From: a virus
Lineage: Duplodnaviria; Caudoviricetes
Direction: 5' to 3' (one strand)
Length of the DNA: 57,647 nucleotides
Virus record (IMG/VR): IMGVR_UViG_3300021081_000002
Coordinates: 1-57,647 of that record
Shown: in pieces, positions 4,554-26,076 of the stretch
Layout: the number at the start of each line of letters is the position of its first letter
Numbering within the stretch: the stretch's first letter is position 1
Translations under genes and position numbers: made by a program
The notes under the pieces: model-generated
Database searches by the model: none
Told to the model about the DNA's origin: nothing
The model's input: the letters and a program-made list of their open reading frames with translations, nothing else

Positions 4554-5390
4554 CTATCGGTTCTTTCGGAATCGCTTCCACCACACGTGCCCGTGCTGAG
4601 ACTCGTCCACTAGCCTTCGCATCTTTTCGAGATCACCGGTTGCCCGGTTGTAGCGAATAGCGAGGTTGTCATTAGTTCGGGGGTGATGCTGTCCCTTCCA
4701 TTTCCGAGTCACCCAAGTATCGCCATGCTTCGGGTGCCACATATGGAGGACGTCGTTCTTGGAAGTCTTATGCTTCCCATATAGAGTATCGAGCGCTCGG
4801 ACGAAGGCGATGTCTTCACCACCCCAGCCACGGAAGCGCTTATCCATACCACCGACGAGTTCGAATGCCTCCCGGGGCATAATCTGGATTAACGCACCGA
4901 ACCGGTGGCCGAAGGCAGAGCCTTGGATCGACTCGACGTCCAAGTCACTCGGCGGGGACGGGAATCTCAGCGGGTCGGTGGGAGAACTCTGAAGTACTCT
5001 CTCAGTCGCTTCAGCTGTCAATCGGAACACACGGCGGTAGGGAACGAACCACAACGGATATCCCTTTCGCCGAGCGCGGTTGATACGCGCGGCGGCATCT
5101 CTGATTACCTGACCGGGAATATAGGTGTCCGCGTCGAGTATCACAAAGATGTTGCCACGTGCGCGTGAGGCAGCGTCGTTCACCGCGCAAGTCTTCGAAA
5201 AGGGGGTGCCGTTGTCATCCCCCATGACGATCTCGGCCTCGGGGAGTTCGCTAGCCCAGTAATGCTCTAGCCACTTCCAAATACGTTTCCGGTGAGCGTT
5301 ATCTGGCCGGAAGGGCACGAGGAGGGAAATTTTAGGATCGGGCGGTCTGTGATGGGGATGGCGTCGGTGGCGCCACCAGCTACTTACCAC
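4554..5390 (-). CDS. Glycosyltransferase, GT-A fold (GT2 / galactosyltransferase C-terminal type)
   Basis: ISLLVPF, DxD motif (LDADT), GGMDKRFRGWGGED. Start placed at GTG 5390, overlapping the upstream stop. Confidence 0.85.
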   Translation of the reverse strand: MVSSWWRHRRHPHHRPPDPKISLLVPFRPDNAHRKRIWKWLEHYWASELPEAEIVMGDDNGTPFSKTCAVNDAASRARGNIFVILDADTYIPGQVIRDAAARINRARRKGYPLWFVPYRRVFRLTAEATERVLQSSPTDPLRFPSPPSDLDVESIQGSAFGHRFGALIQIMPREAFELVGGMDKRFRGWGGEDIAFVRALDTLYGKHKTSKNDVLHMWHPKHGDTWVTRKWKGQHHPRTNDNLAIRYNRATGDLEKMRRLVDESQHGHVWWKRFRKNR

Positions 5391-9372: not shown

Positions 9373-10048
9373 TGATCAGCTCCAGGGTAGCTTCGCGGTT
9401 AAGGTAGGCGGCGTTGTAACGGTGGAGGATTTCGACATCTTCCGGCTCCCAGTCGAGGGTTAGTTTGCCGGTAGGGTCCGCACGGTCGTGATAGAGGCAC
9501 ATCAGCACCCCGGGATGAAACACCGGTTGACCGACTAGCGTATGAGCGGCGTTAATCATCGCTCTGTCCTCACAACCCCAACCCCTCAGCCTTGAGTCTT
9601 GTCCACCTGCAAGCCACCATACGTCAGGTCGACAAACCCAAATTCCTCCCTGAGAAGGTCCTGCTCGGCAGATTGCTCGGTTTCGGAGCTGAGAAAGATT
9701 TGATCCTCCGGCGATATTGTGGATCGCTTTCGGCGACATCTCCCACACCTCATTGAAAGGGAAATGGAGAAGGTAGTCTTCAGACTGAATAGCATCTCTC
9801 AACGCCCTTTCCTCTGGGATGGAGTCAGCGTCGCAGAGGACCACCTTCTCAGCTCCGTAGCTCTCAGCCATCAACACTCCGAGATTTCTCGTCGCAGAGC
9901 GGTTAAAACGGACATAAGATCTGTCATCGGCAACTAAGACGTGATCGAACGGATACATCTCAGAGACGCGGTCCCGAGTGATCTTGAACGGCTCTTCCCG
10001 CGAGCCTGAGTCATCATTCCGGTACAGGAACACGAGAGCAGTCCGCAC
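9257..10048 (-). CDS. Glycosyltransferase, GT-A fold (galactosyltransferase C-terminal type)
   Basis: FNRSATRN, CDADS (DxD), GGQDSRLRGWGCED. Paralogous to 4554-5390. Confidence 0.82.
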   Translation of the reverse strand: MRTALVFLYRNDDSGSREEPFKITRDRVSEMYPFDHVLVADDRSYVRFNRSATRNLGVLMAESYGAEKVVLCDADSIPEERALRDAIQSEDYLLHFPFNEVWEMSPKAIHNIAGGSNLSQLRNRAICRAGPSQGGIWVCRPDVWWLAGGQDSRLRGWGCEDRAMINAAHTLVGQPVFHPGVLMCLYHDRADPTGKLTLDWEPEDVEILHRYNAAYLNREATLELINERADHTGTFQRQAEERCRTLRQFQRYDDGIDRTGDCL

Positions 10049-10773: not shown

Positions 10774-12813
10774 TTAGACATCTCCAGGGTTGTCCCCGAC
10801 GATCGGGCCAAAGAGGGTGGCGTCGGGGACTTCGTACACCTGGCCGTAGATCCTGGTCAGTTCCGCAACCCTCGCCGGCTCCGCGACCCACCGACGGAAC
10901 TTGTCATCGCCGTCAGCGAGGTAGACGGCAGTTTTACCACTACCCCTGATGAGGGCCTTTCGGAAGGACTTGTTCATCTCACCCTTCGTCGGGCCGCCGG
11001 TTACCACCGGTCGGTCGTTGATCAGAGCCTCGACTCGGAAGATCAGGGCGTTAAAATGGGTTTCGAAGTTAGCGGGCAGTGGCATATCTTCATCATCTCC
11101 TGTAGTGGTGTGGTTCCAGAAATATAGCGGTCCGCCGGTGGTGACGTCGTTGTCGCAGGCAGCACCAAGGACGGTGACGTTATTCTCCACCTGCCTGACG
11201 CTGGCGCGCTTATCGAAGGTAAAGTCGCTCCCACGGAGGTTGACGGTCTCAGCATTCGGACCGGTACCAACTTGACTCTTTAATGACCAGGCATACGCCT
11301 GCCAACCGTCCTGAATCACCCCCTGGTCGAATCCGAGGGAGATAACCCGGTAACCGCCGTAAACCCCGAAGCGGTAGCCAGCGGCGTTAGTCACTGCCCG
11401 CGCGGCGATCTGATATGGCTTCACTTGCCCGTTCCACGCCGACACAGAGACGTCGAAGTCGGCCGAGAAGTAGATAGTACTTCCCGAGGGGTATCCGAGG
11501 GCCCTAGCCTGCTTTACGGCCTCTGTGGCGTCGCTGGTCCCTCCAGCGGCACCCCTGGACTGATCCCCAGCGGTATTTTCCCAGTTCAGCATGATATTAA
11601 CCCCCGCTGCCAGGAGTTGGTCCCTCTCGGCGGCGAGAATGACTTTACCGTTGGGCAGTGGTGCGAGATACCGCGAAACGAAGGTGATCCCGAGGGGTTG
11701 GAGCCCAGAAAGTGGTGTTGGGCGACCCCATGAGTAGTCGAGACCCTTCAATTTCAACCCGACGGTGGGCGGGGGTGTAGGTGGTGGTGGCGGAGGCGGC
11801 AAAATGACTCCTTGGCGAGCTTGGAAAGCGGCGAGTGTCTCTCCCCGCATGATGCTGAGCGTAGCATCCATTGCTAAATACGATCCGCAGTCCTTACGAT
11901 TGAAGGAGATGTGAATGTGCCACAAGTGGCTGGTATCGGAGGTTGTAGTCCGATGAGCACGGAAGTCCCAACCCTCGACGCCGTTGTCATCGTCAGTCTG
12001 GCCGAAGAACTCCTTCATGTACCCCGAACGGGGGTCGTTAGCCTGTCCAGCGGCGAGAAGCCGGTTTGCATATCTCTTGATGGTGGTATAGTCCCCGGCC
12101 TGGGCGTCTGGGAAGGTTAGATCGATAGCACTGGCCCTGTCGGGGCCCGTGCGGTCATCGGCGTGCTGGACGGAGTAGTCACCGGAACTGTTCTGGCTCC
12201 GGGTGTTGTGATAGCCGGGCTTGTTGGCGTAGATCCCGCCGAGCAGGGTACGCGGCTCGACATTGACATCAAACTGCCTCCAGAACCACCACATCGCGTC
12301 TGTGACGTAATTCGGATTGGGGTTGTCACTGATCGCGACGGGAGCGGGGGCCGGAACGGGGACCGATGACGGCGGGGGTGTAGTTTGTACCCTAATGGAC
12401 GCTAACCACTGGTCTGCGAGTGTTGCGCTTGTTGCGAGGTGTACGTGGTTCGCATGCTGTGCCTTCGTCGCGGCGTCGTAGACGTCCGCTACCCTCTGGT
12501 TCTTGACATAGAAGCCGTTGTCCGTGTCGAAGGGGGTCGTATGGATTTCCTCCACGATGTACTTCGAGAACTGGATCAGCCACAGTGCGACGTCTCTCCC
12601 CTTCTCCGGCTGGCCGGTTCCGCCGAAGCCTATGTCGATTGCGACCGCCATACTTCCGCCATACTGGAGATTTCCGCTGTGATAGCTCCCCGGCTCACTT
12701 CGGACCGAGGATGTGATGTAGATGTCGGCCTTACCTGGATAGAATTCGAGAATTTCGAGGAGTTTGCGTCCGATGTCGTTGAGTTGGACGTCACTCCAGA
12801 CGGTGATAGCCAT
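10774..12813 (-). CDS. Endolysin: two zinc-peptidase-like domains plus a DUF1906-type glycoside hydrolase domain
   Basis: YHS...AIDI...HANHVH; YHN...AIDL...HLWHIH; GLDYS...FVSRYL...NWE...IYFSADFD...GVYGG...WQAYAWS; Pro-rich linkers. Start placed at ATG 12813 (GAAGGGA RBS). Confidence 0.85.
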   Translation of the reverse strand: MAITVWSDVQLNDIGRKLLEILEFYPGKADIYITSSVRSEPGSYHSGNLQYGGSMAVAIDIGFGGTGQPEKGRDVALWLIQFSKYIVEEIHTTPFDTDNGFYVKNQRVADVYDAATKAQHANHVHLATSATLADQWLASIRVQTTPPPSSVPVPAPAPVAISDNPNPNYVTDAMWWFWRQFDVNVEPRTLLGGIYANKPGYHNTRSQNSSGDYSVQHADDRTGPDRASAIDLTFPDAQAGDYTTIKRYANRLLAAGQANDPRSGYMKEFFGQTDDDNGVEGWDFRAHRTTTSDTSHLWHIHISFNRKDCGSYLAMDATLSIMRGETLAAFQARQGVILPPPPPPPTPPPTVGLKLKGLDYSWGRPTPLSGLQPLGITFVSRYLAPLPNGKVILAAERDQLLAAGVNIMLNWENTAGDQSRGAAGGTSDATEAVKQARALGYPSGSTIYFSADFDVSVSAWNGQVKPYQIAARAVTNAAGYRFGVYGGYRVISLGFDQGVIQDGWQAYAWSLKSQVGTGPNAETVNLRGSDFTFDKRASVRQVENNVTVLGAACDNDVTTGGPLYFWNHTTTGDDEDMPLPANFETHFNALIFRVEALINDRPVVTGGPTKGEMNKSFRKALIRGSGKTAVYLADGDDKFRRWVAEPARVAELTRIYGQVYEVPDATLFGPIVGDNPGDV

Positions 12814-12875
12814 AGATATGTCCCTTCGGGGCTCTGTCTGCGTCTTGGCGGCGATTTCGGACAAAATGGGGCAAA

Positions 12876-12904
12876 ATTATGGCATCAAGTGCCACATCGA
12901 CCAA
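12876..12904 (-). promoter_or_regulatory. Putative housekeeping-sigma promoter for the lysin/structural arm
   Basis: TTGGTC-17 nt-CATAAT on the minus strand. Confidence 0.45.
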
Positions 12905-12963
12905 TCTACAGGTAGTACAAACTGTTAGAGGCGAAGACGAATAGTGCAGCGACGTTTATCGAT

Positions 12964-13340
12964 GGGGGTACCCCCCCTACCCCACCACCACTAGACACCA
13001 GACACACACCACAGTGGTGGGTACCGGTACCTGGGTACCGGTACCTGTAAGGGATCCCTTATGTGACTCCAGTACCGGTACCTCTAAGGGATCCCTTAGG
13101 GTCCCATATGGAGGGTAGGTACCGGTACCCTACTAAGGGATCCGTTAAGGGATTCCTTAAGGGATCCGTTATAAGGATTGTTATTATGGGTCCTATATCA
13201 TGGGGTAGTAAGGGATCCGTTAATAGGCACCATATGGGTCCCATCGACATCGATATGCGAGGCGACACATATGAGCGATGTGAGAGGTATGTATTATATT
13301 TATTAACAGATCCCTTATTAATATAACAGATCCCTTATGT
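12964..13340. repeat. Array of short palindromes (GGTACCGGTACC and TAAGGGATCC(C/G)TTA families)
   Basis: GGGGGTACCCCC at 12964. GGTACCGGTACC at 13020, 13034 and 13118, core only at 13072. About 8 TAAGGGATCCCTTA-like copies between 13048 and 13338. Confidence 0.9.
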
Positions 13341-13800
13341 ATATGTATAGTATACATACCACTACTATATATATATTATACATATATATAATACATATAT
13401 ATATTATATACATATATATACTATATGTATATATATATACTATATGTGTATGTATATACTACTACTATATATATACTATACATATATATACTACATACAT
13501 ATATGTACCATATACATATACCATATACTAATAGCGTATGTATGTGTGGTATGTATGGTATGTATATACATATACCATATGTGTATAGTGTATATGCACA
13601 TAGCATATGCACATAGCACTAAGAGATATAGCATATGCACATAGCATATGCATGTGCACCATCACGGTAGCGTGATAGGGGTATATAGCACATGCACACC
13701 CTGCACCTGCGACAGCACGTGCACCCCACGCCACATGGCAGGTACGTGCACCCCACACCACAGCACGAGGTGTGCTCCACGCCACACCCACACCACACCC
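13337..13800. repeat. AT-rich TA-type low-complexity tract grading into CATATGCACA / GCACGTG alternating purine-pyrimidine repeats
   Basis: Directly visible. ATAGCATATGCACATAGCA is repeated at about 13600-13650. Confidence 0.9.
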
Positions 13801-13820
13801 CGTCCTCGCCACACCCTGAT

Positions 13821-13849
13821 TTGCATTCAAGCTAGGTGTATGCTAAGCT
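13821..13849 (+). promoter_or_regulatory. Strong early promoter
   Basis: TTGCAT-17 nt-TAAGCT with an extended -10 TGn, at the head of the plus-strand arm. Confidence 0.7.
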
Positions 13850-13855
13850 TGAGAG

Positions 13856-14975
13856 GTAGGGCAAGGAAGACAGAGTTGACAACTGAAGAGGCTAGGTAGA
13901 GGTACTCAGTGAGGTAGTTCACAAACTGATACCCCGGTTGCAGGTCTAGACCCCCTGGAAGTACAGAGGGAATTATCTGAGAGCCACAGTGTTATACCTA
14001 GTAGAGAGCAAAATAGCAAAGGGACACACCGATCGGGTTGAACGAAGATCCAATTGGATGCGAGAGATCCGGTTCGTGACCAAGAGTCCTGATGTACCGA
14101 ATAGAGACAGCGTCCAGCTAATGATGCCAGAGGGTTGCCACCCCGAGCGCGTCATGTGGGTATCGCTTCACAGCGATCAGTACTTTATCTCGTTCCGGCC
14201 CACTACTGGTACACACCAATTAGAGAGTTGTGTGTAGGGTGCGAGGTCATACGCTGTCCAGTGTACGTTGTACGGTTTGAGGGGTCTGTGAAGGTAGTTA
14301 GCCACAGTGCAACAACACGACAACGTACGCGAAACATGAGTCCAGCCACACATGAGCCGGTAGTTAGGCGGGATGCCAGACGGCTAGTCAGTAGTTTGAC
14401 GGGATGTCAGAGGCTAGCGGGACTCAAGGCAGTACGTCCCCTACCATCCAGGGGTTACAGGGATGATGAAGACGTGAGTATGGGTGCGTTCCTTGGCGCT
14501 AGCAAGACGGTTGCCAAGTGGCCTAGTGAGGCTAGGCGACGTACCCAGATCCTCTAAGGAGTTGATCGCTCACGGGCCGGGTACTACGAGGGAGAGTGCC
14601 AACGACCGCACTTAGCACGGATTGAGGAGCCGGTGCTATCTGGGGGGAGGTTGATAGGTGACGTTAACGGACCTATCAGACTGTACCAGGGTAGCAACCT
14701 TGTCCGGAAACGTGGAGAGTGCAAGATCAGCTTCATAGACTGATCATGACACAACAGAGAGACTTAACACATACTTAGCACTTAGCTTCACACTTCGCAC
14801 TACATCGCACATAGAGCACTGGACCCAAACACGGGCGGCAACACTGCTTAGAGGATACGTCGTACGACCACAGACGGGCATTTAGGTAGGCAGTCCTAAT
14901 AGAGGGTAGGTAGTTAGGCAGGATGCCAGACTGGTGTGTCAGGTCATGAGCGGGATGCTCGCGACACACACGATG
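13856..14975 (+). ncRNA. Candidate large structured non-coding RNA / leader
   Basis: No convincing ORF. Many helices with G-U pairs, a three-way junction (14482-14546) and repeated GGA-loop hairpins. Confidence 0.6.
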
Positions 14976-15026
14976 TGCTCACACATACAATCACAACTAG
15001 AAGATAGATCAAGAGAAGGTGAGGTA

Positions 15027-15161
15027 ATGAATAGCATCTGTGGCTACCTGCTAGAACACGCAGAGGCCACAACCGAATTCAAGCTTGAGTGGGTTACCAC
15101 CCCGCTTAGGACCGCCATGGGAGTAATGCATCTAGTCCAGCAAAGTGGTATCCTCGGCTAG
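15027..15161 (+). CDS. Small hypothetical protein (44 aa)
   Basis: ATG preceded by a GAAGGTGAGG RBS-like stretch. Confidence 0.35.
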   Translation: MNSICGYLLEHAEATTEFKLEWVTTPLRTAMGVMHLVQQSGILG

Positions 15162-15198
15162 ATGTACTACTGAGAGGGAGAGGGGGAGGTGTTGCAAG

Positions 15199-15849
15199 AT
15201 GTATACGCTGTTAGTCGTTGGAATCGGGATCGTGGGCGCTCTCCTAGGGTGGATCCTCGGCTATAGAAAGGCAAGCCGACGATCAGAAGATATAGAGAGG
15301 GCTGCCCACCTTGACAAACTAACTGGGCTGTTTGATAGGGCCATCGTCGAAAACGCTATTGATGATGCCACGAAGAGTGGCGTCAACCTCACAATTGGGG
15401 TATGTGACGTCAACGGCCTACATGACATCAACGAGTCCTTGGGGCACGCTGCGGGCGATCAACTGCTCTTAGCCGTGTCTCATCGCTTACTCGACCTTCT
15501 CCCCGAGGGAGAGGGATTGGTGGCAAGAACGGGGGGAGATGAGTTCTGGATTGCAACCTCTCAGTCACCTCAAAGCCTAGTAGATGCGTATACCTCTGAC
15601 ATCGACGGCTTGGCTCACAGGGCCAGTGTCGGAGTTGCATCATCCCCACAAAACGGGTCGCCGAGACACGCTGTCCTCTGTGCAGATCTCGCGATGTACT
15701 CAGCAAAGAGTAGCCACACACCTGCGATGATCTATAACCAGAGCACTATGGGTACGCCTGAAGAGCAGAATGAAGGACTACCGGAGGAGATCAAGTACGA
15801 GCATCGCCATCACGAGCGCCGACAAAAAGAGAGAAGGAAAAGGGCGTGA
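15199..15849 (+). CDS. Membrane-anchored GGDEF-domain protein (putative diguanylate cyclase)
   Basis: N-terminal TM helix, DKLTGLFDR, DVNGLHDINESLGHAAGD, ARTGGDEF, ASVGVA, ADLAMYSAK. GGAGG RBS before ATG 15199. Confidence 0.9.
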   Translation: MYTLLVVGIGIVGALLGWILGYRKASRRSEDIERAAHLDKLTGLFDRAIVENAIDDATKSGVNLTIGVCDVNGLHDINESLGHAAGDQLLLAVSHRLLDLLPEGEGLVARTGGDEFWIATSQSPQSLVDAYTSDIDGLAHRASVGVASSPQNGSPRHAVLCADLAMYSAKSSHTPAMIYNQSTMGTPEEQNEGLPEEIKYEHRHHERRQKERRKRA

Positions 15850-15912
15850 CTACTACACTAGGGATGATCTTGATGCTGGGAATCATATACCCGTTCTTGG
15901 TGTTGTAGCGGA

Positions 15913-16150
15913 TATGGATCCCAACATCACACTCCTACGCATCCGTGAGTTGAGCCATAGGCTTAACAGGACCTACGACGAACTCACCGAGCTAGCTGAG
16001 CTAGTGGAAGAGCTTGATCACTGGATGACCAGAGGTGGCTTCCTTCCGAAAGCATGGGAGCACAAGCCACGAACCAGAGAGTGGTGGGACAAGGTAGCTA
16101 CAGGAGAAGAAGTGGCTACCCCCCGCTACGAGAGGGAGGGGTCACCATGA
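15913..16150 (+). CDS. Hypothetical protein (MDPN...LDHWMTRGGFLPKAW, actinophage type)
   Basis: The motif is familiar from actinophage early genes. Coupled to the next gene by ATGA. Confidence 0.6.
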
Positions 16151-16407
16151 ACGACCTAGCCAACGAGCCATTTGGACCAGACGACGAGTCGCTGCCAGAC
16201 GACGAGCGAGGGGCTGTAGCCCTAAGTCTAGTCCGAGTGTTGACAGAAGCGCTGCTTGACCGTAATCTGACTCAAGACCTCGATGACCAGCACCACATCA
16301 TCAACTACATCGAGCCGTATACCGTCCCACCATTCTCACTTGAGATGAGCATCGCGCTCCAAGCGAATCAGCCTGGCCAGAGTGTTGGCCTCAAGGAGGG
16401 TAACTGA
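16147..16407 (+). CDS. Hypothetical protein
   Basis: GGAGG RBS and ATGA overlap. Confidence 0.55.
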   Translation: MNDLANEPFGPDDESLPDDERGAVALSLVRVLTEALLDRNLTQDLDDQHHIINYIEPYTVPPFSLEMSIALQANQPGQSVGLKEGN

Positions 16408-16408
16408 G

Positions 16409-17401
16409 ATGACCAAGGAAACTCAGCAGTGGCTAGAGTCCAACATCCGCGTCGGCTTCACGAAGCAGAGAGGGAATGCGTGGTGGTATGAGGGAGACAC
16501 TCAGAGCCACTACACCGGCGAAGTCCCCGAGGAGGAGGTCAAGCGGCTACTTGGCTTCCCAGTCGTCGAGAGCCCTGTGTACGTCAACGTCGAGCCGGAT
16601 AGCACGGGGAAGCTCGTAGTCCCTGACAAGAAGGCCATCATCCGAGGAGACACAGGGGAGGTCTTCAACATCACCGCGAGCGGCTACCAAGTACACCCAC
16701 TGACTGAGTGGCTGTATGACAGCGTCTACCAGATGCTAGACGGCGGGGTAGGGGTCGGCAGTGTTGGACTCCTGAATGGTGGCAGGGTCGCCTTCGTTCA
16801 GATGGAGCTGCCAGAGAACCAGCGGGGCCCTAACGGCGAAGACTTCCGACCGTTCGTAGCGGCTACGACCTCACTGGACTCCTCACTGGCAACTGAGTAC
16901 CAGCGGGGGACGACTCGGATCGTCTGCGACAACACCCGTAGTGCGTTCTTCGCCCATGGTGGTGGGCTGAAGAAGCGGCACACCAAGAACTCAAGTGTGA
17001 AGCCTCAAGAACTGCGGGACCACCTCGGGATCGCACTTGAACAGATCTCCGAGGACTACATCGCAGAGATCGAGGCGCTGACCTCGAAGGACGTCAGTGA
17101 GCGACAGTGGGCCGCGTTCCTCAACGAGTACGCGCCTATCCCCGAGAACCCCGGTAGGGGCCAGACGATGGCCAGGAACAAGCAGGACGCCCTCATGGGG
17201 TTGTGGGAGTCCGATGACCGAGTACCAGCGGGGACGGAGTGGGGAGTGCTGCAAGCCGTCAACACCTACAACCAGCACGTCCGAACCGTGAAGGAGGTCG
17301 ACAGGGTAGAGCGGAACTACATGAACCTCCTAGAGGGCAAGACCGCGAAGGAGGACAGGACGACACTGGAAGTGTTGGATCGGGTACTGTCGCGGGCGTG
17401 A
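16409..17401 (+). CDS. DUF932-family phage/plasmid protein
   Basis: G.LNGGR.AF, TSLDSS, TRIVCDNT, RHT, GTEWGVLQAVNTY. AAGGAGG RBS. Confidence 0.85.
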   Translation: MTKETQQWLESNIRVGFTKQRGNAWWYEGDTQSHYTGEVPEEEVKRLLGFPVVESPVYVNVEPDSTGKLVVPDKKAIIRGDTGEVFNITASGYQVHPLTEWLYDSVYQMLDGGVGVGSVGLLNGGRVAFVQMELPENQRGPNGEDFRPFVAATTSLDSSLATEYQRGTTRIVCDNTRSAFFAHGGGLKKRHTKNSSVKPQELRDHLGIALEQISEDYIAEIEALTSKDVSERQWAAFLNEYAPIPENPGRGQTMARNKQDALMGLWESDDRVPAGTEWGVLQAVNTYNQHVRTVKEVDRVERNYMNLLEGKTAKEDRTTLEVLDRVLSRA

Positions 17402-17417
17402 TACCGTGAGTTAACCG

Positions 17418-17445
17418 TGGGGGCGTCGGGAAACCGGCGCTCCCA
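17418..17445 (+). terminator. GAAA-capped GC-rich hairpin (terminator or processing site)
   Basis: GTGGGGGCGTCGG-GAAA-CCGGCGCTCCCAC. Confidence 0.5.
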
Positions 17446-17469
17446 CTCTCTATTTGCCGAGGGGTATTG

Positions 17470-17715
17470 ATGGAGACAGATCAAGACGAAGAAGTCGAAG
17501 AAGCCACTGTCGACTCCGATGAGTACGAGCACGCATTTTGCTCTGTTTGTAACGACTTGAGTTGGGCGACGCTCGCGGCCATCCAACCGGGTGATGTCCT
17601 ACTGACGATATGCGGTCTGAGACGGCCTATAAGGAACAAACTCCCGACGTGCCCCACTTGCCTACCGTCTTGGCGTACGATGACGTGTATGTTCCACTCA
17701 AGGGGGCAAACGTGA
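17470..17715 (+). CDS. Small Cys-rich hypothetical protein
   Basis: HxxCxxC...CG...CPTC. GAGGGG RBS. Confidence 0.55.
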   Translation: METDQDEEVEEATVDSDEYEHAFCSVCNDLSWATLAAIQPGDVLLTICGLRRPIRNKLPTCPTCLPSWRTMTCMFHSRGQT

Positions 17716-18071
17716 GGTGGTGTGTGATCGAGGGGTACCCGAACTACCAGATCAGTGATCGCGGGACGGTGCGCGGTCCAAGAGGGGTCTTGAAGCCATG
17801 GCTACAGAAACGTGGAGGGTATCCTGCCGTCAGACTCAGCAAGGGCACCTATGCCAGTCAAAAGAACTGGTGCGTGCACACACTCGTTGCTAACGCATTC
17901 CTTGGACCTAAGCCTACGTCGAAGCACGAAGTCTGCCATCGTGACTCTAACCCTACCAACAACCGTGTCTCTAACATATACTGGGGCACTAGAGCAGACA
18001 ACGTACGCGATGCTATGAACCGGGGCACCGCATTCAATGTAGGTCGGGATGGTGGAAGATGGTCAAAGTAG
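17712..18071 (+). CDS. NUMOD4-HNH homing-type endonuclease
   Basis: EGYPNYQISDRGTVR, VHTLVANAF, VCHRDSNPTNNRVSNIYWGT. Overlaps the dnaE start. Confidence 0.88.
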   Translation: MRWCVIEGYPNYQISDRGTVRGPRGVLKPWLQKRGGYPAVRLSKGTYASQKNWCVHTLVANAFLGPKPTSKHEVCHRDSNPTNNRVSNIYWGTRADNVRDAMNRGTAFNVGRDGGRWSK

Positions 18072-21000
18072 ACCCGTTCGTTCACCTACACAATCACAGC
18101 GGCTACAGCCTGCTAGATGGGTTGAGCAGTATTGAGTCGATGGTTAATGAAGCCGTGAAGCTTGGTCAACCAGCCATAGCATTGACGGACCACGGGAGTA
18201 TGGGAGGGGCTTATGAGCTATGGGACAGATGCCGCCGGGCAGGGATCAAGCCGATCGTCGGAACGGAGTTCTATGTCAGCCCAGGAGATCACCGAGACAA
18301 GAGCAAGATTCGATGGGGTACTGAGGAACAACAACGAGAGGATGTCGGAGGCGCAGGAGCTTATACGCATCTCACGGTCCTCGCTACTACAGCTGGAGGG
18401 CTTAGAAATCTCTTTGCCCTACACGCTGCGTCCTTCGCTGAAGGATTCTATTCGAAGCCTCGAATCAGTCGCAACGCTCTTATCAATCTATCAGACGGAC
18501 TTGTTGTGCTTTCTGGATGCCTTGGAGGTGAGTTCCAGACTCGACTGAAGCTCGGCCAGGTGGGAGAGGCAAAGAGATACGCCGCAGAGATGCGTGACGC
18601 CTTGGGGGATAAGTTCTACATCGAGATGATGGACCACGGGCTGGAAGTCGAGGACACCATCAACCCGCTTGTATTCTCGATTGCTCAAGAGCTAGATATC
18701 CCAATAGTGGCCACCAACGACAACCACTACACCCGAGAGGCTGACAGTGACATTCACGACGCTCTACTTTGCCTCCAAACTGGCCAGAGGGTTGCGACAA
18801 AGAAACGGTTTAGGTTTGATGGCGCGGGATATTACCTACGCAGTCGAGAGGAAATGTCTGCGCTCCCTCTACCGGACTCAGCACTACAGAGAACTTGTGA
18901 GATCACTGATCGAGTTGGATCGTACGACTCAGTCTTCGAGGAGGACGTCAGACTCCCAGGACTAGGGGACGACAACAAACTCATCCGACAGACCGTAGCC
19001 GACTGGCTCTACTGGAAGCTAGGGGTTGACGGCGCCACCGAGTACAGGACCTACGAACAACGAGCGGAGTACGAGCTTGACACAATCATCGGGAGAGGGA
19101 CGGCTGGATACTTCACCGTCCTGGCTGACGTTGTCGCCAGAGGAAAGGATCGCGGCATACGAGTTGGCCCGGGGCGCGGTAGTGCGGGAGGCAGCCTTGT
19201 CGCATATGCACTGGGAATTACAGAGCTTGATCCAATACGCGAGGGACTACTCTTCGAACGATTTCTTAACCCCGCGCGAGTTGGACTACCTGACATCGAT
19301 ATTGACATCCCTGACGACCGCAGAGACGAGTTTATCGAGATTGTCCGGGAAGTTCACGGCAACGACAACGTAGCGCAGGTTGGGACGTACGGAACGGTGG
19401 CGTCGAAGTCTGCGATACACGACGCAGCCCGCGTACTCGGCCACTCACGCGACTTCTCCAACACCCTCGCTAGTCAACTACCCCCGGCTCGATTTGGTCG
19501 GTTACCGTCGCTCTCAGAGCATCCGTATTGGTCAGACCCAAGTCCGACGGGGCCAACACGAGAGACGATGGAGCTTGCGGCAGGACTTGAATCTGCGATC
19601 AGGTCCAAGGGTGTGCACGCTGCGGGGGTAGTCGTCTCACCGACTCCACTCGCCAACCAACTGCCGTTGTGGATACCGACGGGGGAAACAGGATGGGTGA
19701 CAGCGTTCAGTAACCCGAACGACTACCCCATCCTTGACAAGATGGGGATTCTGAAGTACGACGTGCTTGGACTGAAAACACTAGGAGTAATCGATGAGTG
19801 CTTGCGCATGGTGGCCCCCAGGGACGTGCAGTTGCCCAGTGCATCAGCCGACTGCACAGACACTAAGACCTTCGAACTCCTCCGCTCCGGACACACCCTC
19901 GGAGTCTTTCAATTGGATAGCCCCGGGATGCAACAACTACTGAGAGCACTTAAACCAGATAGGTTCGCAGACATTTCTGCCTGCCTCGCTCTATACAGAC
20001 CAGGACCAATCGGGGTCAACGCACACCACAGCTATGCCAAACGCAAGAATGGACGAGAACGGGTTAGCTATCCTCACGGTGAGTTGGAAGAAGCTCTACG
20101 ACCAGTTCTAGAGGACACCTACGGGTTGATCGTCTACCAGGAACAAGTGCTCGAAACCCTGAGAGTTGTGGGAGGGTACGACTACGCATCCGCTGGGTTG
20201 ATATTCGATGCAATGAGGAAGAAGAACACCGAGAAGATGCTGGCTAGTAAGCCAGACTTCTCTTCACGGATGAAGGCAGAGGGTTACAGTGAAGACTGCT
20301 GTGAAGTTCTATGGGCCACGCTGGTTCCATTTAGTGATTATTCCTTCAACAGAGCACACACCACGGGGTACGGCTTGGTTGCGTATTGGACCGCGTACCT
20401 CAAAGCGAACTATCCGACTGAGTATATGGCCGCGCTTCTCACTCGTACGCCACCGACGACGAAAGATGGGGTAAAGAAAGCCCATGAGTACATCAATGAA
20501 GCGGAGAGGATGGGTATATCGGTATTATCTCCCGACATCAATGAATCATCCGCTGGATGGACTCCGACCTCAACCGGAATTCGTTATGGACTTACCACCA
20601 TCAAGGGTGTGGCAGACAAAGCTTTCGACGCGCTTCAAACGAAGCGACCATACAAATCTCTGGACGATATGCTGCGAAGAGCGCCGGCTAAAGCGCTTAA
20701 CGTCGGCGTACTGCGGAGTCTTGTCCGGGCGGGCGCGGTGGATAGTCTGGAGGACAGACGAGAAGAACTTGACCTGGATCTTGAGAGTCTGGTTGAACAG
20801 GCATTAGCAGAGAGGAAGATGAGGTCAAAAGGTCAGGTTGGGATCTTAAGCACTACGTACACGGCAAGCTCTCGTGGGTTGTATTCGAAAGGAGGGAGAC
20901 AAGAATGGGAGATGGATCTTCTGGGAGTGCACCTGACCCAGACGGAGATAACACTACGGCTGTCACGGTGGTTGACTCCCGAGGAGTTCGAGTATCTGAA

Positions 21001-21148
21001 TTCCGTATGTTCGGAGCACCCTGGATCGAGTCCATTACACTTAAATATCGGCAAGATTCTGTTGAGGGGGATCGCGATGGTTGGTTGGTCCGAGTCGATC
21101 AAGAGGGCTTTCACCTCACTCGGGGTAATAGAGGTGACTGAATCATGA
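18059..21148 (+). CDS. dnaE: DNA polymerase III alpha subunit (family C, DnaE-like)
   Basis: PHP domain HLHNHSGYSLLDG/TDHG, GPGRGSAGGS, FERFLNP, catalytic PDIDID, KYDVLGL, YSFNRAH. Confidence 0.96.
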   Translation: MVKVDPFVHLHNHSGYSLLDGLSSIESMVNEAVKLGQPAIALTDHGSMGGAYELWDRCRRAGIKPIVGTEFYVSPGDHRDKSKIRWGTEEQQREDVGGAGAYTHLTVLATTAGGLRNLFALHAASFAEGFYSKPRISRNALINLSDGLVVLSGCLGGEFQTRLKLGQVGEAKRYAAEMRDALGDKFYIEMMDHGLEVEDTINPLVFSIAQELDIPIVATNDNHYTREADSDIHDALLCLQTGQRVATKKRFRFDGAGYYLRSREEMSALPLPDSALQRTCEITDRVGSYDSVFEEDVRLPGLGDDNKLIRQTVADWLYWKLGVDGATEYRTYEQRAEYELDTIIGRGTAGYFTVLADVVARGKDRGIRVGPGRGSAGGSLVAYALGITELDPIREGLLFERFLNPARVGLPDIDIDIPDDRRDEFIEIVREVHGNDNVAQVGTYGTVASKSAIHDAARVLGHSRDFSNTLASQLPPARFGRLPSLSEHPYWSDPSPTGPTRETMELAAGLESAIRSKGVHAAGVVVSPTPLANQLPLWIPTGETGWVTAFSNPNDYPILDKMGILKYDVLGLKTLGVIDECLRMVAPRDVQLPSASADCTDTKTFELLRSGHTLGVFQLDSPGMQQLLRALKPDRFADISACLALYRPGPIGVNAHHSYAKRKNGRERVSYPHGELEEALRPVLEDTYGLIVYQEQVLETLRVVGGYDYASAGLIFDAMRKKNTEKMLASKPDFSSRMKAEGYSEDCCEVLWATLVPFSDYSFNRAHTTGYGLVAYWTAYLKANYPTEYMAALLTRTPPTTKDGVKKAHEYINEAERMGISVLSPDINESSAGWTPTSTGIRYGLTTIKGVADKAFDALQTKRPYKSLDDMLRRAPAKALNVGVLRSLVRAGAVDSLEDRREELDLDLESLVEQALAERKMRSKGQVGILSTTYTASSRGLYSKGGRQEWEMDLLGVHLTQTEITLRLSRWLTPEEFEYLNSVCSEHPGSSPLHLNIGKILLRGIAMVGWSESIKRAFTSLGVIEVTES

Positions 21149-21348
21149 AGCCTCCTATCGGACAACGGGTGAAGCACTCTCTCGACGGCGCCAGTGCTGT
21201 TGTCGTCGAGTGGGATATCTGTAACTACTCCGGAGAGTACTGGGATGACTGGAAGGGAGTAGTCGAGTCGCACGACGAAACCGTAGTAGTTCTATTTGAC
21301 GACGACGACAAGGCCACACTACAACGAGTAGCATTTCTACGCTGGTAG
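21145..21348 (+). CDS. Small hypothetical protein
   Basis: ATGA overlap with dnaE. GAGGTG RBS. Confidence 0.55.
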   Translation: MKPPIGQRVKHSLDGASAVVVEWDICNYSGEYWDDWKGVVESHDETVVVLFDDDDKATLQRVAFLRW

Positions 21349-21481
21349 GCGCCTGCTACAATAGGTGGAGACGTCAACTCCAGGGCAGCGGGTTCTACTC
21401 TCTCCCCGCGTGGCAATCGGTTAGTCCAGCCCCGATGCTCATAATGCTGGACACAAACCCTCTTAGTGAAAAAGATGTTCA

Positions 21482-21545
21482 CCCTTCGAAGCTTGATGGA
21501 AGAGCACGAAAGTGTTAGTTGGTTCGAATCCAACCGAAGGGACTA
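21482..21545 (+). ncRNA. tRNA-like RNA lacking a canonical anticodon arm
   Basis: Acceptor CCCTTCG/CGAAGGG, D arm GCTT-GATGGAA-GAGC, T arm GTTGG-TTCGAAT-CCAAC. Only 12 nt lie between the D and T arms. Confidence 0.7.
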
Positions 21546-21567
21546 GTTGTACATAAGAGAGGGAGTT

Positions 21568-22023
21568 ATGAGTGATTCAGTCGTAGTTGCACTCATTGTC
21601 GGGTCCTTTACTATTATGGGGCCACTAATCTTAGGATGGTATCAATACAGAGCGCTCCAAAAAGCTAAACTCCAGGATTATGCTCACCAAGAACTGTTGT
21701 CCGCAATTGCGACCAACAAACTCGACCTTATTCAAAACACAGTCACATCGAAGATGAGTCAAACGATGCAAGCGGAATTAGATTCCACTATCCGTGAGCT
21801 GGTCGTCATCCGAGAGGTAGCAGCCCTGCACCGAGCGGCGGGGAACCCCATCGACTACGATGCCATCGTAAACGCCGATGTCGCGAAGCGCCGTATCCAC
21901 GAACTAACCTCTATACTCGCCGATCGAGCAGAAAACCTAAAACAACAACTGCCACAACAAACTGACGGTCAGGATGAATCCGACAAATCCAACGAGGTAC
22001 TTCCCACCGTCACCAATTCCTGA
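21568..22023 (+). CDS. Membrane protein (N-terminal TM plus helical domain)
   Basis: Hydrophobic residues 4-25. GAGGGAG RBS. Confidence 0.6.
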   Translation: MSDSVVVALIVGSFTIMGPLILGWYQYRALQKAKLQDYAHQELLSAIATNKLDLIQNTVTSKMSQTMQAELDSTIRELVVIREVAALHRAAGNPIDYDAIVNADVAKRRIHELTSILADRAENLKQQLPQQTDGQDESDKSNEVLPTVTNS

Positions 22024-22362
22024 ACTATGACTCTGCTGAGAGACTACTATCTCTCGGAGTTCGTTGATCTTCTCGGTCAGCGCAGACATGCGTTGCTCGG
22101 CCTCCGTCCGGGGCATCATCGTTGAGATGATGTCCTGGTACGCCTGGCGGAACTCATTCACTGACTCGAACCGCTTCTCGGATGCCATCTCAGCCTTCAA
22201 CACCGCTTTCTCGGCCGCTGCGATGGCAGCGACGACCGCTTTCTCCTGAGCCTCGAAACGTTGCTGGTATCGCCGGTCCATCTCGCTGAGCATGGCGGTG
22301 AAGTAGGCGACGATCGTTACCTCTCCTTCACCCCCAACGGAACCTTCAGCAGTTGTGGGCAC
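21937..22362 (-). CDS. Coiled-coil protein with C-terminal TM (type often found near actinophage lysis genes)
   Basis: RFEAQEKAV...AVLKAE.ASEKRFESVNEFR. AAGGAGG RBS. Confidence 0.7.
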   Translation of the reverse strand: MPTTAEGSVGGEGEVTIVAYFTAMLSEMDRRYQQRFEAQEKAVVAAIAAAEKAVLKAEMASEKRFESVNEFRQAYQDIISTMMPRTEAEQRMSALTEKINELREIVVSQQSHSSGIGDGGKYLVGFVGFILTVSLLWQLLF

Positions 22363-22533
22363 GTGGCCTCCTTAAGGGTCAGGAAGTAGGACATTAAGGG
22401 GGATAGTGGTCAGGGTGATGGGCGTCAGTCTGAGGGCTGAAATGTCCCTGAAATTGGGGGACCCCTAGTTTTCCTCGCTGAAGCCGTTTTAGTCGCTTAG
22501 CGTGGCTCTCAGCGGGCTACAGGGCATGTTCTG

Positions 22534-22746
22534 TCACGACGCGGGGAGTCCAGCCGCACGCGCTATCTGGATGGGGGACATCCTGTCGGTGACGCTGGTG
22601 GGCTGAGAAGCGAGGTAGGCGTCTACCTGCCTCATCGCTCTCAGTGCAGTGACCCCGTCGGCGGAGAAGATCGCTTGATTCCGGAGGTGCCGGCGCGCAG
22701 TCTCCTCGGTCCAACCTGTCTTCGACACCCAGGGGTTGTTATTCAC
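22534..22746 (-). CDS. Hypothetical protein
   Basis: Coupled to the HNH gene stop. Confidence 0.45.
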   Translation of the reverse strand: MNNNPWVSKTGWTEETARRHLRNQAIFSADGVTALRAMRQVDAYLASQPTSVTDRMSPIQIARAAGLPAS

Positions 22747-23056
22747 GCTTCCTACCTCTCCTCGCCTCGGCCTTGGTCTTAATCTGGTGACAACTGTAGC
22801 ACAATAACTGCAAGTTTGTCAATGCATCACTGCCACCCGAAGCACGGTTGACGATGTGATCTAGTTGTAACCTCTGTCTTGAGCCGCACTGTCTGCACCT
22901 TTTGCCGTCTCTCTTCTCTACCGTCCGTTTCAGCTTCACCCAGTTGCTAGGGAGCGTGGACTGTGACGCACGCCACCCTTTCGGGTGGGTGGGGCAGGGC
23001 AGGAAGTTGCCGCAATCTTTTGGACACCGGCGCCGGGCTCTGGGAATCTCCACCAC
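22739..23056 (-). CDS. HNH endonuclease (packaging-associated, HK97 gp74-like type)
   Basis: RD.xxCxxC...DHI.....GG.D...NLQLLCxxCH..KT. GGAGG RBS. Confidence 0.85.
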   Translation of the reverse strand: MVEIPRARRRCPKDCGNFLPCPTHPKGWRASQSTLPSNWVKLKRTVEKRDGKRCRQCGSRQRLQLDHIVNRASGGSDALTNLQLLCYSCHQIKTKAEARRGRKRE

Positions 23057-23077
23057 CTCCAGGTCGTTGGACAGTGT

Positions 23078-23350
23078 ATGAACGACACCACTGAGAAGTT
23101 GACGCCCCTCCAGCGCCGCATAGCGGCCTGGGAGCTACATGACCGAGGGATGTCCCAGAGATGGATCGCGAGGACCCTCGGGGTCGGGAAGTCGACCATC
23201 GGAAATGATCTACGGAAGCGAGTCATGCCGGAAGGAGAGCGGAGTGGGCAAGCTAGCGAAGAAGTTCGAGGAGGTAGTCCGGAAGCTCAACGACGAGATC
23301 GAGGGGGCGAAGCAGCGAGCCCGGGAGGAGAGGGAGAAGCAGCGTCGTAG
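23078..23350 (+). CDS. Helix-turn-helix protein
   Basis: GMSQRWIARTLGVGKSTIGNDL. Confidence 0.65.
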   Translation: MNDTTEKLTPLQRRIAAWELHDRGMSQRWIARTLGVGKSTIGNDLRKRVMPEGERSGQASEEVRGGSPEAQRRDRGGEAASPGGEGEAAS

Positions 23351-23354
23351 CTGA

Positions 23355-23789
23355 TCACCACAACGACCCTCCGGGCCACACCACACGACCGATGCAGTGG
23401 TCGTCGAGCAACTGGGTGCAGTCGGTGCACGGTGCTCGCGTGATGTACGCGGTGGTGTGCTCGGAGTGGTCCATCCACGCTCCGAGCGGGTAGCGGTCAG
23501 TGAACCGTTCCATCAGGTTGAACTCAGCGTGATACGCGATGCAGTTGGCGTAGGTCCCACCAGCAGCGAGTTGGTCATACGTCAACAAACCCCTCGGACA
23601 GGCACCTTCGAGACACCCTGGGACACCAGGGTCAGTTCCGTTGTAGGACGTAGCGAGGATGTGATGACTGCGGTTGTCCATCAGCACAGCACCGACGAGG
23701 CTACGACGGCAGTCACCTCGGGTGCCTGCTGCGGTTGCGAGGATGAGACCGTACGAGTCCCAGTCCGGTCGTCCTTCGAGGGTGTGCAT
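23355..23789 (-). CDS. Deoxycytidylate (dCMP) deaminase
   Basis: RPDWD, C.R..VGAV, YNG, HAE.N, PCxxC. Start placed at ATG 23789. Confidence 0.9.
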   Translation of the reverse strand: MHTLEGRPDWDSYGLILATAAGTRGDCRRSLVGAVLMDNRSHHILATSYNGTDPGVPGCLEGACPRGLLTYDQLAAGGTYANCIAYHAEFNLMERFTDRYPLGAWMDHSEHTTAYITRAPCTDCTQLLDDHCIGRVVWPGGSLW

Positions 23790-23864
23790 GTCGCCTCTGT
23801 CTGATTCGCAAAACAACGCATTATAATAAGGAAGCGCGCCCCCGGCGCGCAACAAGATCCGGGG

Positions 23865-24035
23865 GAGCCGTTTCCTAGGGAAGCCTCTCGGCTTCTTCCC
23901 TGAGGTATCCGTTAGCTTCACTGAGTGAGGTAGTCCCTGAGTCGAACAGGGTCAACCTTCCAAAGTCCTCACCTAGTGCCCGTTGGTAGGCTTCCACTGC
24001 TACCAATCAGCGTACCGTAAGAGTTTCCCCCTCGG
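23865..24035 (-). ncRNA. Candidate structured RNA with a T-loop arm
   Basis: CCCTG-TTCGACT-CAGGG arm nested in GTGAGG/CCTCAC and CGCTGA/TCAGTG stems, a TTGGTAG/CTACCAA hairpin, and GAAA and GAGA tetraloop hairpins. Confidence 0.5.
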
Positions 24036-24065
24036 CTTAAGTATTAGGTGTCCAGGTGAGAATAT
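24035..24065 (-). promoter_or_regulatory. Conserved intergenic motif, copy 2
   Basis: Matches 10724-10754, including an exact 14-bp core. Confidence 0.5.
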
Positions 24066-24107
24066 ACGGCATAGCCGGCGAAACTATGACATCTGAGAGG
24101 TGATACG

Positions 24108-24380
24108 ATGACACCCATGGACACCGTCAACGCCCTCTGCGACCACCCCCTGTGCCCTGCTGCGGGGACCGTGCTGACCGCCAAACCGGTTGGTGCCGAC
24201 GACTTCTCTGAGCTGTTGTGGTGCGCCCACCACTACCGGGCGCAAGAGGTGATCTTGAAGACTGCGGGGTTTGAGGTTGTCTCAAGTACAGACGACTGGA
24301 TAAACGACACCAAACGGGAGGAAAAGGATGACCACCCAGGAACTACACCAGATGTCCATCCGGACTACCGGGGACCGTAG
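24108..24380 (+). CDS. Small Zn-binding hypothetical protein
   Basis: CD...C...LLWCAHH. GAGGTG RBS. Confidence 0.6.
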   Translation: MTPMDTVNALCDHPLCPAAGTVLTAKPVGADDFSELLWCAHHYRAQEVILKTAGFEVVSSTDDWINDTKREEKDDHPGTTPDVHPDYRGP

Positions 24381-24764
24381 CCAGTGCTCCAGGTGCTTCG
24401 GCTTCGTTGATGACTACAGACACATCGGTCCCGACACCCTTTACGGACCGCCGGTAGAGGCGCTACACTCTGATCACGGCAACCAACACACGACTAGGAG
24501 TGGTGAAGGTGGCAGACCAGTGGGAGGGTGATACCCCGAGGAAGCGCTTGAGGAAACCTCCGCCCCCACGAGCGAGAAGGCAGGTTTTGAACAGTTGCGG
24601 CTGTTATGTCTACTACTGCCGCGACTATCCCATTCCAGCCCCGAGATGCAAGGTGCTATGCGCAAATTGCGGAGAGAGTACTACGGTCCAGTCGTGGTTG
24701 GGGCTGTCCTCGGCTTCACGGCCTCCGTCCCGATTTTCTCCTTCATCCTGAGAGGTATAGACCA

Positions 24765-25244
24765 GTGGCAAACGACATCGCATTCGAGGAAACACTCCAC
24801 CAGATCGAAACGGGGGACATCCTCTTCAACATGGATTCCTTCTACGAGCCGGCGAGTGATCACGCCTGCCAGAGCAAGGCTTGCCTGGCTGGTCAGGCAG
24901 CTATCGCAGCGGGGCACTACGAGTCGTACGACACCGAAGACGGCAAGCGGTTTCTCCAGCCGGCGAAGGGCGGGACGTGGGCAGAGTGGGGGCGGGAAGT
25001 CCTCGGGTTGACTCGCGTCGAGGCAGAGATCCTCTTCTATCACTCGATGGAGGTCACGACCCCCGAAGAACTCCGCGAGCGGTGGATCGCAGTGACGAAA
25101 AACGGCGTCACCACCGACATGAGCACGGAGAAGGACATCGGCGAATTCTTGAAGACCTACTACACCGTCCTCGAAGAGACCGACGACCCGAATGCGGCTT
25201 ACGCCGCCGCCGTCCGGGTCGGCCAAGAGGTGGCAGTGGGGTGA
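24765..25244 (+). CDS. Hypothetical protein
   Basis: FNM..F...C.S.ACLAG...LGLT..EA..LF pattern. GAGG RBS before GTG 24765. Confidence 0.6.
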   Translation: MANDIAFEETLHQIETGDILFNMDSFYEPASDHACQSKACLAGQAAIAAGHYESYDTEDGKRFLQPAKGGTWAEWGREVLGLTRVEAEILFYHSMEVTTPEELRERWIAVTKNGVTTDMSTEKDIGEFLKTYYTVLEETDDPNAAYAAAVRVGQEVAVG

Positions 25245-25882: not shown

Positions 25883-26076
25883 GCGTCGGATTCCTAGGCT
25901 TCTTCGTCCTCCTCGGACTGAAGCTCTCAGGGGTCATCGGGTGGTCGTGGTGGTGGGTGACCGCGCCTCTGTGGGGCGGGTTCGCACTGACACTGGCGAT
26001 TCTGGTGGTCTTCGGGACGTTGATCGCGGTGACGCGGCGAGTCTTCAGTTTGATCTGGGAAGACAACGATCGATGA
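25879..26076 (+). CDS. Small membrane protein
   Basis: LKL.GVI.WSWWWV.APLW motif, common in phages. Confidence 0.7.
   Translation: MSVGFLGFFVLLGLKLSGVIGWSWWWVTAPLWGGFALTLAILVVFGTLIAVTRRVFSLIWEDNDR

Follow-up and report, generated by a model that had tools for sequence, protein, structure and literature searches.

The 57,647-bp window analysed in this study, a complete virus record (IMGVR_UViG_3300021081_000002) of the class with direct terminal repeats, carries four hairpins with a fixed C-RGGAU-G loop in a non-coding 5' leader of approximately 1.2 kb that precedes a rightward early operon (+ strand, 13850-15026; the start is approximate). The hairpins themselves, their clustering, their strand bias, the absence of a coding signal, and the retention of the last hairpin together with a domain of approximately 120 nt in one relative were observed. 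We tentatively interpret the region as a cis-acting structured leader of the early operon, in which the hairpins would act as paired protein-recognition sites, and assign this interpretation a probability of about 0.42. The feature is best described as belonging to the cis-regulatory hairpins of phage early leaders, here in a new actinophage lineage.

In the proposed mechanism, transcription would probably start near position 13855, from a promoter-like site that is common to relatives, and the transcript would cross approximately 1.2 kb of folded non-coding RNA before reaching the first open reading frame (ORF) at 15027. The paired fixed-loop hairpins would be recognized by a dimeric or two-site RNA-binding factor, of either phage or host origin, and the bound factor would determine what becomes of the early transcript, whether at the level of translation, of stability or processing, or of read-through at terminators further downstream. 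Control of read-through is one concrete possibility, because a strong terminator-like hairpin (17417-17446) follows the first gene block. Long folded leaders that precede the early operons of phages serve as control points, lambdoid phages being an example; to our knowledge, almost nothing is known about early-operon leaders of actinophages. The conserved leader domain, with its terminal GGGAU hairpin and the repeat-borne copies of the same loop, constitutes a compact, testable element. If a specific protein binds the loops, this element would represent a new RNA-protein switch that times early gene expression in phages infecting antibiotic-producing actinomycetes, and it might be of use as a regulatory part in actinomycete hosts.

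Fixed-loop hairpins in a non-coding leader

The four hairpins, all on the + strand, have their loops near positions 14370, 14401, 14920, and 14952 and form two pairs, whose members are 31 and 32 nt apart. A first-pass annotation, made from the letters of the window, had pointed to fixed loops on stems with compensating changes; every motif that it quoted was found where it had been placed, and the pattern was borne out for + strand hairpins. Repeat unit 1 (+ strand, 14359-14381) consists of GGTAGTTA followed by the hairpin GGC-GGGAU-GCC (14367-14377). Unit 2 (+ strand, 14390-14412) begins 31 nt after unit 1 and combines AGTAGTT with the hairpin UUUGAC-GGGAU-GUCAGA (14395-14411), whose quoted core TGAC-GGGAT-GTCA corresponds to 14397-14409. 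It is 78% identical to unit 1, and its stem differs by a double change from G-C to A-U and by a change from A.A to U-A. In unit 3 (+ strand, 14909-14931), GGTAGTTA is again followed by a hairpin, GGC-AGGAU-GCC (14917-14927). Units 1 and 3 share 22 of 23 positions, in agreement with the earlier claim of a 23-nt unit recurring at 14359 and 14909. The fourth, terminal hairpin (+ strand, 14934-14969; -17.9 kcal/mol) is composite, with an outer GUGUGU/ACACAC stem and an inner part formed by GUC..GAC and UGAGC-GGGAU-GCUCG; its loop (14952-14956) is placed 32 nt after unit 3, and the quoted core GAGC-GGGAT-GCTC occupies 14948-14960.

Statistical analysis confirmed that the observation is sound and real. 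At up to three mismatches, the 23-mer occurred at exactly two sites in the window (14359 and 14909), with none expected from 100 shuffles. Self-comparison showed that this repeat is sharply bounded, with unrelated flanks and a distance of 550 nt between the copies. The sequence CRGGATG was found 33 times in the whole genome (20.0 ± 4.3 expected) and four times in the 1177-nt leader (0.22 ± 0.46 expected), a count that none of 300 dinucleotide shuffles reached; the four leader sites fall within 600 nt and are all on the + strand. Genome-wide, only 4 of 136 + strand RGGAT sequences were flanked by at least three Watson-Crick pairs, and these were precisely the four leader hairpins, while the corresponding 4 of 123 on the - strand were scattered. 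Two linear motifs were also enriched in the leader: GTAGTT (5 occurrences, 0.29 expected) and AGGTAG (6 occurrences, 0.36 expected). The unit is bipartite, with linear GGTAGTT directly preceding a hairpin three times in the leader. A single repeat unit accounts for three of the four hairpins, which are therefore not independent occurrences. The repeat-borne hairpins have the same loop heptamer as the terminal hairpin, which is conserved independently. Bipartite unit, paired spacing, and common heptamer most likely reflect the anatomy of repeated sites for a two-surface factor acting on the nascent transcript.

A coding explanation of the leader was rejected on the basis of three analyses. A coding score based on codon usage, trained on 25 long ORFs, detected no sustained positive frame in the leader and was positive for downstream genes. 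None of the 57 stop-to-stop frames of 12865-15200 matched the four related loci described below at E<0.01, and the longest leader ORF (140 amino acids, 14135-14557) had no homologue in a large protein collection. The purine excess of the leader was the same as that of the downstream + strand genes (GC skew +0.12, AT skew +0.14). Folding of the whole leader yielded z-scores of -2.97 for the + strand and -1.54 for the - strand (20 shuffles each). Additionally, positions 14549-14562 and 14843-14856 show long-range complementarity (13 of 14 positions) that could close a domain of approximately 300 nt and that was also present in the centroid fold.

Searches of Rfam at the gathering score gave no match in the leader; when E values up to 10 were accepted, all 40 matches, of microRNA type, were located in the low-complexity tract 13016-13662 and none in 13830-15027. 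No + strand terminator-like site was detected in 12700-15400 by a scan that depends on a T-run, a feature that may be missing from actinobacterial terminators. In a freshwater-sediment metatranscriptome run, 0.96 of the sampled words of 13800-15200 were present as assembled contigs, and one DNA run, a possible source of the genome, contained all sampled words of this segment. Because DNA carry-over is possible, the metatranscriptome match was regarded as weak evidence, compatible with transcription.

Conservation among related loci

Comparison was based on four related loci with polymerases 45-48% identical to that of the window, designated L002 (a viral contig), L003, L004, and L005; L004 and L005 were counted once because they are identical over 6,000 nt. 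In L005, leftward genes for a glycosyltransferase and an endolysin are followed by approximately 2.1 kb of gene-free sequence containing GGTACC repeats, a TA/TG-rich tract, a promoter block, and a long leader, which is the order found in the control region of the window. The GGTACC repeats occupy the same relative place as an array of GGTACCGGTACC and TAAGGGATCCCTTA in the window, and L003 contains a related type of palindrome, AAGGGATTCCTT, as well as a TA-rich tract. TA/TG-rich tracts resembling that of the window were found in L003, L004, and L005. Just after the tract, L003 and L005 have a common block of 59 nt (71% identical) that reads TTGYGC, 16 nt, TARRGT. Alignment of TTGCGC-16-TAAGGT (L005) and TTGTGC-16-TAGAGT (L003) with TTGCAT-17-TAAGCT in the window points to the latter (+ strand, 13820-13848; TTGCAT, 17-nt spacer, TAAGCT) as the putative rightward early promoter. 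Gene-free sequences of 0.6-1.2 kb precede the first ORF with a ribosome-binding site in the window, L003, L005, and L002 (approximately 1.1 kb in L002).

Gapped local alignment identified a leader domain (+ strand, 14850-14965) homologous to positions 5145-5285 of the distant relative L005 (polymerase 46-48% identical), with a score of 41.2 as compared to 23.4 ± 2.8 in 200 shuffles, none of which reached it (maximum 35). The domain, approximately 116 nt in the window and 141 nt in L005, consists of the collinear blocks GAGGATACG, CGGGCATT, and CTAATAGAG..GGTAGT, followed by the terminal hairpin. A 28-nt terminal core was identical at 25 of 28 positions to L005 5260-5285 (E 9e-4 in a small leader-versus-leader search). 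The hairpin core reads UGAC-GGGAU-GUCG in L005 and UGAGC-GGGAU-GCUCG in the window, where one base added on each side of the loop creates an extra pair. The outer stems differ yet pair in both cases, with GUGUGU/ACACAC (6 bp) in the window and GAGCG/CGCUC (5 bp) in L005; the probability of obtaining such stems in random flanks was 0.024 and 0.061, respectively. Single-sequence folds of window and L005 each contained the terminal hairpin. The domain folded more stably on the + than on the - strand, both in the window (-41.8 versus -35.9 kcal/mol) and in L005 (-64.3 versus -44.2 kcal/mol), and G.U pairs were present in the + strand stems. Two 1-nt indels put the overlapping ORF out of frame, so that conservation of the domain is at the nucleotide rather than the protein level. 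Local alignments and single-sequence folds were preferred, as MAFFT misaligned parts of the whole leaders and of the terminal hairpin. A helix that closes GAGGATACG...CGGGCATT looked compensated in the alignment and was not claimed, as it was formed in the minimum-energy fold of the window and not in that of L005.

Several results weigh against interpretation of the leader as an array of protein-recognition sites. Conservation of the loops in homologues, which the first-pass annotation had suggested as a check, extended to the terminal hairpin in L005 and no further: units 1-3 had no counterpart in L005, L003, or L002, and at the position of unit 3, L005 has a longer GC-rich insert without such a hairpin. 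The domain was present in only one independent relative, and leader similarity was not significant for L003 (111 of 200 shuffles as good) or L002 (171 of 200). L003 lacked any + strand RGGAU hairpin; L002 had a single, weak one, GAU-GGGAU-GUC, with a U.G closing pair, in addition to two GGAU tetraloop hairpins. On a whole-genome scale the 28-nt match would amount to approximately 31 bits by our own arithmetic, no better than chance-like matches, and it was absent among the best 25 of 36 hits of a whole-genome search. The single hairpins are of ordinary stability (z -0.58 to -1.72), and three of the four loops were predicted to be paired elsewhere in the whole-leader ensemble (probability of being unpaired 0.02-0.08), leaving unit 2 as the only hairpin with a loop predicted to be open (0.92). 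Pfam scans of 49 ORFs, which left many small ORFs without a family, detected no RNA-binding regulator family and thus no candidate phage partner. Finally, the 44-amino-acid first ORF is not arginine-rich.

Further searches for relatives returned few sequences. A blastn search of 12800-15300 against 50,697 phage records gave no match; a degenerate 20-mer of the repeat unit was absent from the searched viral contigs, and the hairpin-core pattern from the searched viral and genome contigs. The pattern CTAATAGAGNNNNGGTAGT was found at 60 loci and was judged to reflect chance, since all had 29-48% G+C and the single motif-sharing locus had an unrelated context. Single-protein scans with the DUF932 protein (viral contigs) and the endolysin (genome contigs) yielded no additional relative, and only the L002 contig among 12 viral loci from a polymerase alignment search belonged to the clade. 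In Rfam scans of the window, L002, L003, and L005, the only matches were two tRNAs, both in L003, where the genes (9547-9619 and 9718-9797) directly follow the polymerase gene; the window has no tRNA gene in its whole 57,647 bp. L003 (639-659) and L005 (4868-4889) also share a second leader hairpin, with a fixed GUAUCA hexaloop on differing, complementary stems, which was not found in the window.

Candidate partners and alternative explanations

The first-pass annotation had interpreted the hairpins as a CsrB/RsmZ-like sponge, co-transcribed with a diguanylate cyclase gene. This specific proposal was not borne out, and its own caveat, that the partner may be a protein other than CsrA, was judged to be the better reading. 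Involvement of host CsrA, either titrated by the leader or controlling it, appears very unlikely. Such involvement would tie expression of the early genes and of the GGDEF gene to the FliW-CsrA flagellar circuit of a motile Micromonosporaceae host. CsrA can bridge sites 10-63 nt apart, and a dimer would be accommodated by the spacing within the pairs (31 and 32 nt). According to a review, the CsrA consensus obtained by systematic evolution of ligands by exponential enrichment (SELEX) is RUACARGGAUGU, with ACA and GGA invariant and GGA preferably in a loop (PMC4347634). The RGGAUG of the phage loops corresponds to six positions of this consensus, with GGA within the hairpin loop in all four RGGAU hairpins with at least three Watson-Crick pairs, one of which has a loop that is open in the whole-leader ensemble. 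Relative to the same consensus (PMC4347634), the invariant ACA is missing from all four hairpins, in which GGC, GAC, GGC, and AGC take its place. The only ACA-bearing site, TACAGGGATG (14456-14465), had been annotated as closely fitting the CsrA consensus. The fit held at the sequence level (10 of 12 positions) and failed structurally: the GGA is predicted to lie in a stem rather than in a loop (probability of being unpaired 0.07), since it pairs with CAUCC at 14445-14449 in a CAUCC/GGAUG stem (+ strand, 14444-14465). Moreover, GGA is depleted in the leader, with 21 occurrences in 1177 nt (one per 56 nt) versus 29.2 ± 3.6 expected, and 298 of 300 shuffles contained at least 21; equal lengths of the phage's own coding strands contained on average 30.2 and 25.1, and the density is far below that of sponge RNAs. 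No GGA occurs within 20 nt before the ATG at 15027, and the ribosome-binding site of the GGDEF gene contains GGA only within an ordinary purine run. Nor was there a CsrB/Rsm match in Rfam or, in the T-run-based scan, a + strand terminator that would delimit a separate small RNA in the leader.

The 58,139-bp contig L002 is identical in sequence to an entire scaffold of an assembly titled Micromonospora sp., and a further relative (polymerase 43% identical) occurs in a Plantactinospora assembly. As a full phage genome thus travels with the assembly of that Micromonospora isolate, Micromonosporaceae are pointed to as hosts of the phage group. The premise of the first-pass annotation that some actinobacteria have csrA was correct: of 201 genomes sampled from the likely host family, 43 have the gene, and the host of the phage may be among such bacteria. 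In one examined locus csrA lies beside fliW and a flagellin-family gene. The gene was not found in the other 158 genomes, and neither of the two bacterial genomes that carry phage relatives contained it, while control genomes matched. For the phage's own host, a 20-kb DNA search of 401 genomes of the Micromonosporaceae-type family matched only the conserved polymerase core. Three longer hits from the host search were rejected, as they were high-G+C polymerase genes with no other phage genes alongside; five unpublished genomes flagged in this search contribute to none of the conclusions.

Flagellin leaders of five csrA-positive genomes (L161-L165) contained a GCCGA-type promoter element, a hairpin GGC(U/G)CA-NGGA-(U/C)G(G/U)GCC, and a AAGGAGGA ribosome site. 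These sites, which resemble the two-site arrangement of Bacillus hag, look like the natural CsrA sites of the family. As in the phage loops, GGAUG is present in two of the five, which favours CsrA; the flagellin sites have CA before NGGA, which the phage loops lack. On balance, CsrA was retained as a minority possibility only. A more elaborate version, in which the leader would capture the FliW-partnered CsrA of a flagellated Micromonosporaceae host on two bivalent pairs and so tie the early operon to motility and sporulation, seems highly improbable. If true, it would link the early operon, including a membrane-anchored synthase of cyclic di-GMP (c-di-GMP), to the motility and sporulation state of the host, and the leader would be the first CsrA RNA partner described in Actinomycetota and the first encoded by a phage. 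Among literature titles on phage-encoded CsrA sponges, considered as titles only, none described a phage CsrA sponge. Should no protein bind the loops, GGA in a loop would by itself be a poor predictor of CsrA sponges.

Two alternatives do not involve recognition of paired RNA sites. The units may act on DNA, as operator or iteron sites or as single-strand priming hairpins beside an origin in the TA-rich tract 13280-13600, which we consider rather unlikely. The leader does adjoin dense DNA repeats (GGTACCGGTACC, TAAGGGATCCCTTA, ATAGCATATGCACA, and CCACGCCACACC) of types that recur in L003 and L005, the phage encodes helix-turn-helix proteins and its own replication machinery, and a sharply bounded 23-mer conserved at 22 of 23 positions resembles a protein-binding DNA site. 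However, stems that vary with pairing maintained around a fixed loop are the reverse of a palindromic operator with conserved half-sites, and the paired insertion that keeps the terminal hairpin intact breaks both short palindromes of L005. Both the G.U pairs and the greater stability of the + strand (by 6-20 kcal/mol) also disfavour a symmetric duplex site, while leaving room for a + strand DNA hairpin, and the 23-mer, unlike dispersed operators, is absent elsewhere in the genome. It is also rather improbable that the repeats are largely incidental, the product of a recent local duplication of a 23-31-nt unit in a fast-evolving spacer, with function confined to the terminal hairpin, which could then serve as a processing site, for instance, or as a terminator lacking a U-tract. 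The derivation of three of the four hairpins from one repeat unit, the lack of counterparts of units 1-3 in the relatives, the ordinary stabilities of single hairpins, and the divergence of the group's leaders beyond recognition, except for one domain, are consistent with such an origin. Against it stand the near-identity of units 1 and 3 across 550 nt and between unrelated flanks, the changes in unit 2 that keep or improve pairing, the near-equal spacing of the two pairs, and the loop heptamer that the repeat-derived hairpins have in common with the terminal one, which is conserved independently.

Partial likenesses to several known systems were found. CsrB/CsrC/RsmX-Y-Z sponges and CsrA-repressed leaders of the glgC and hag type share with the leader GGA in short loops, an RGGAUG core, and sites paired tens of nt apart. 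The former differ in that the leader is depleted in GGA, lacks ACA in its hairpins and an Rfam match, and shows no terminator delimiting a small RNA in the T-run-based scan, and in that csrA was found in neither bacterial genome carrying a phage relative; the latter differ in that no GGA site in the window overlaps the first ribosome-binding site. A lambdoid nut site consists of boxA and a boxB hairpin that is bound by N. In form only, the leader resembles it in that GGTAGTT leads directly into a hairpin with a loop of 5 nt, an arrangement that recurs close behind the early promoter, with a strong terminator-like hairpin downstream; the leader differs in its unrelated loop sequence and in having an actinobacterial host, and the Pfam scans mentioned above, with their many unassigned small ORFs, showed neither an N-like arginine-rich family nor a known antiterminator family. 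Stoperators of cluster A mycobacteriophages are genome-dispersed duplex DNA sites bound by the repressor. The asymmetry of the repeated units and their single orientation relative to transcription recall these sites, whereas the unit of the window occurs only in the leader (at up to three mismatches), its stems covary, and no repressor or integrase family was detected among the 49 ORFs scanned. Terminators without U-tracts occur in the early region of actinophage phiC31. A stable G+C-rich hairpin without a U-run could describe 14934-14969 and would explain one hairpin at most, not the fixed loop or the paired arrangement.

Genome context and the divergent control region

Judged from its protein families, the window is an actinophage. 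It encodes a DnaE-type polymerase (18059-21148) and an Rv2525c-like endolysin (- strand, 10774-12864), in addition to a DUF932 protein, HNH endonucleases, a DnaB-like helicase, a Toprim primase, ThyX, endonuclease VII, and a small terminase. The best match of the polymerase in the phage database was 42.6% identical (Streptomyces phages), and the large terminase was 34-38% identical to those of Streptomyces, Thermobifida, and Arthrobacter phages; by sequence comparison, the phage is a member of a lineage without a close cultured relative. Gene orientation is leftward throughout to the left of 12864 and to the right of 37594, and mostly rightward between 15027 and 37539. As gene directions diverge there, 12865-15026 (2.2 kb) represents the single divergent control region of the genome.

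The control region begins with a dense array (13016-13240) that combines GGTACCGGTACC repeats with a 14-bp palindrome, TAAGGGATCCCTTA, present in five or six copies and likewise containing GGGAT; a conserved DNA-binding protein probably uses these repeats as operator or iteron sites. A TA-rich low-complexity tract follows at 13280-13600 (G+C 0.42 over 13001-14000), and then five copies of ATAGCATATGCACA together with CCACGCCACACC-type repeats at 13585-13816. Located between divergent operons, the tract 13280-13816 is a candidate replication origin.

Downstream of the leader, the first ORF (+ strand, 15027-15161; 44 amino acids) belongs to no family. The second gene of the rightward early/replication operon (+ strand, 15200-15849) encodes a GGDEF-domain protein (PF00990, E 4e-20) in which the GGDEF motif is intact and a hydrophobic segment is present at the N-terminus. 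Of the earlier proposal that the hairpins are co-transcribed with this gene, their position upstream of it stood, and co-transcription is plausible only. Rfam scans revealed no c-di-GMP riboswitch upstream of the GGDEF gene. The terminator-like hairpin at 17417-17446 (+ strand) is very strong, with 13 pairs of which 10 are G-C. It is located 2.4 kb downstream of the leader, directly after the DUF932 gene and before HNH and polymerase genes, and could end an immediate-early transcript. The number of terminator-like + strand sites in 15000-34999 (17, versus 13.4 ± 3.9 in shuffles) was not above chance.

Four HNH endonuclease genes were found in the replication arm, at 15770-16150, 17610-18071, 22739-23056 (- strand), and 34706-35053. 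In the late arm, the - strand segment 4554-10048 encodes two glycosyltransferases, an NAD-dependent epimerase/dehydratase, and a methyltransferase beside glycine-rich, likely tail proteins, a sugar-modification cluster that suggests modification of virion or host-surface glycans.

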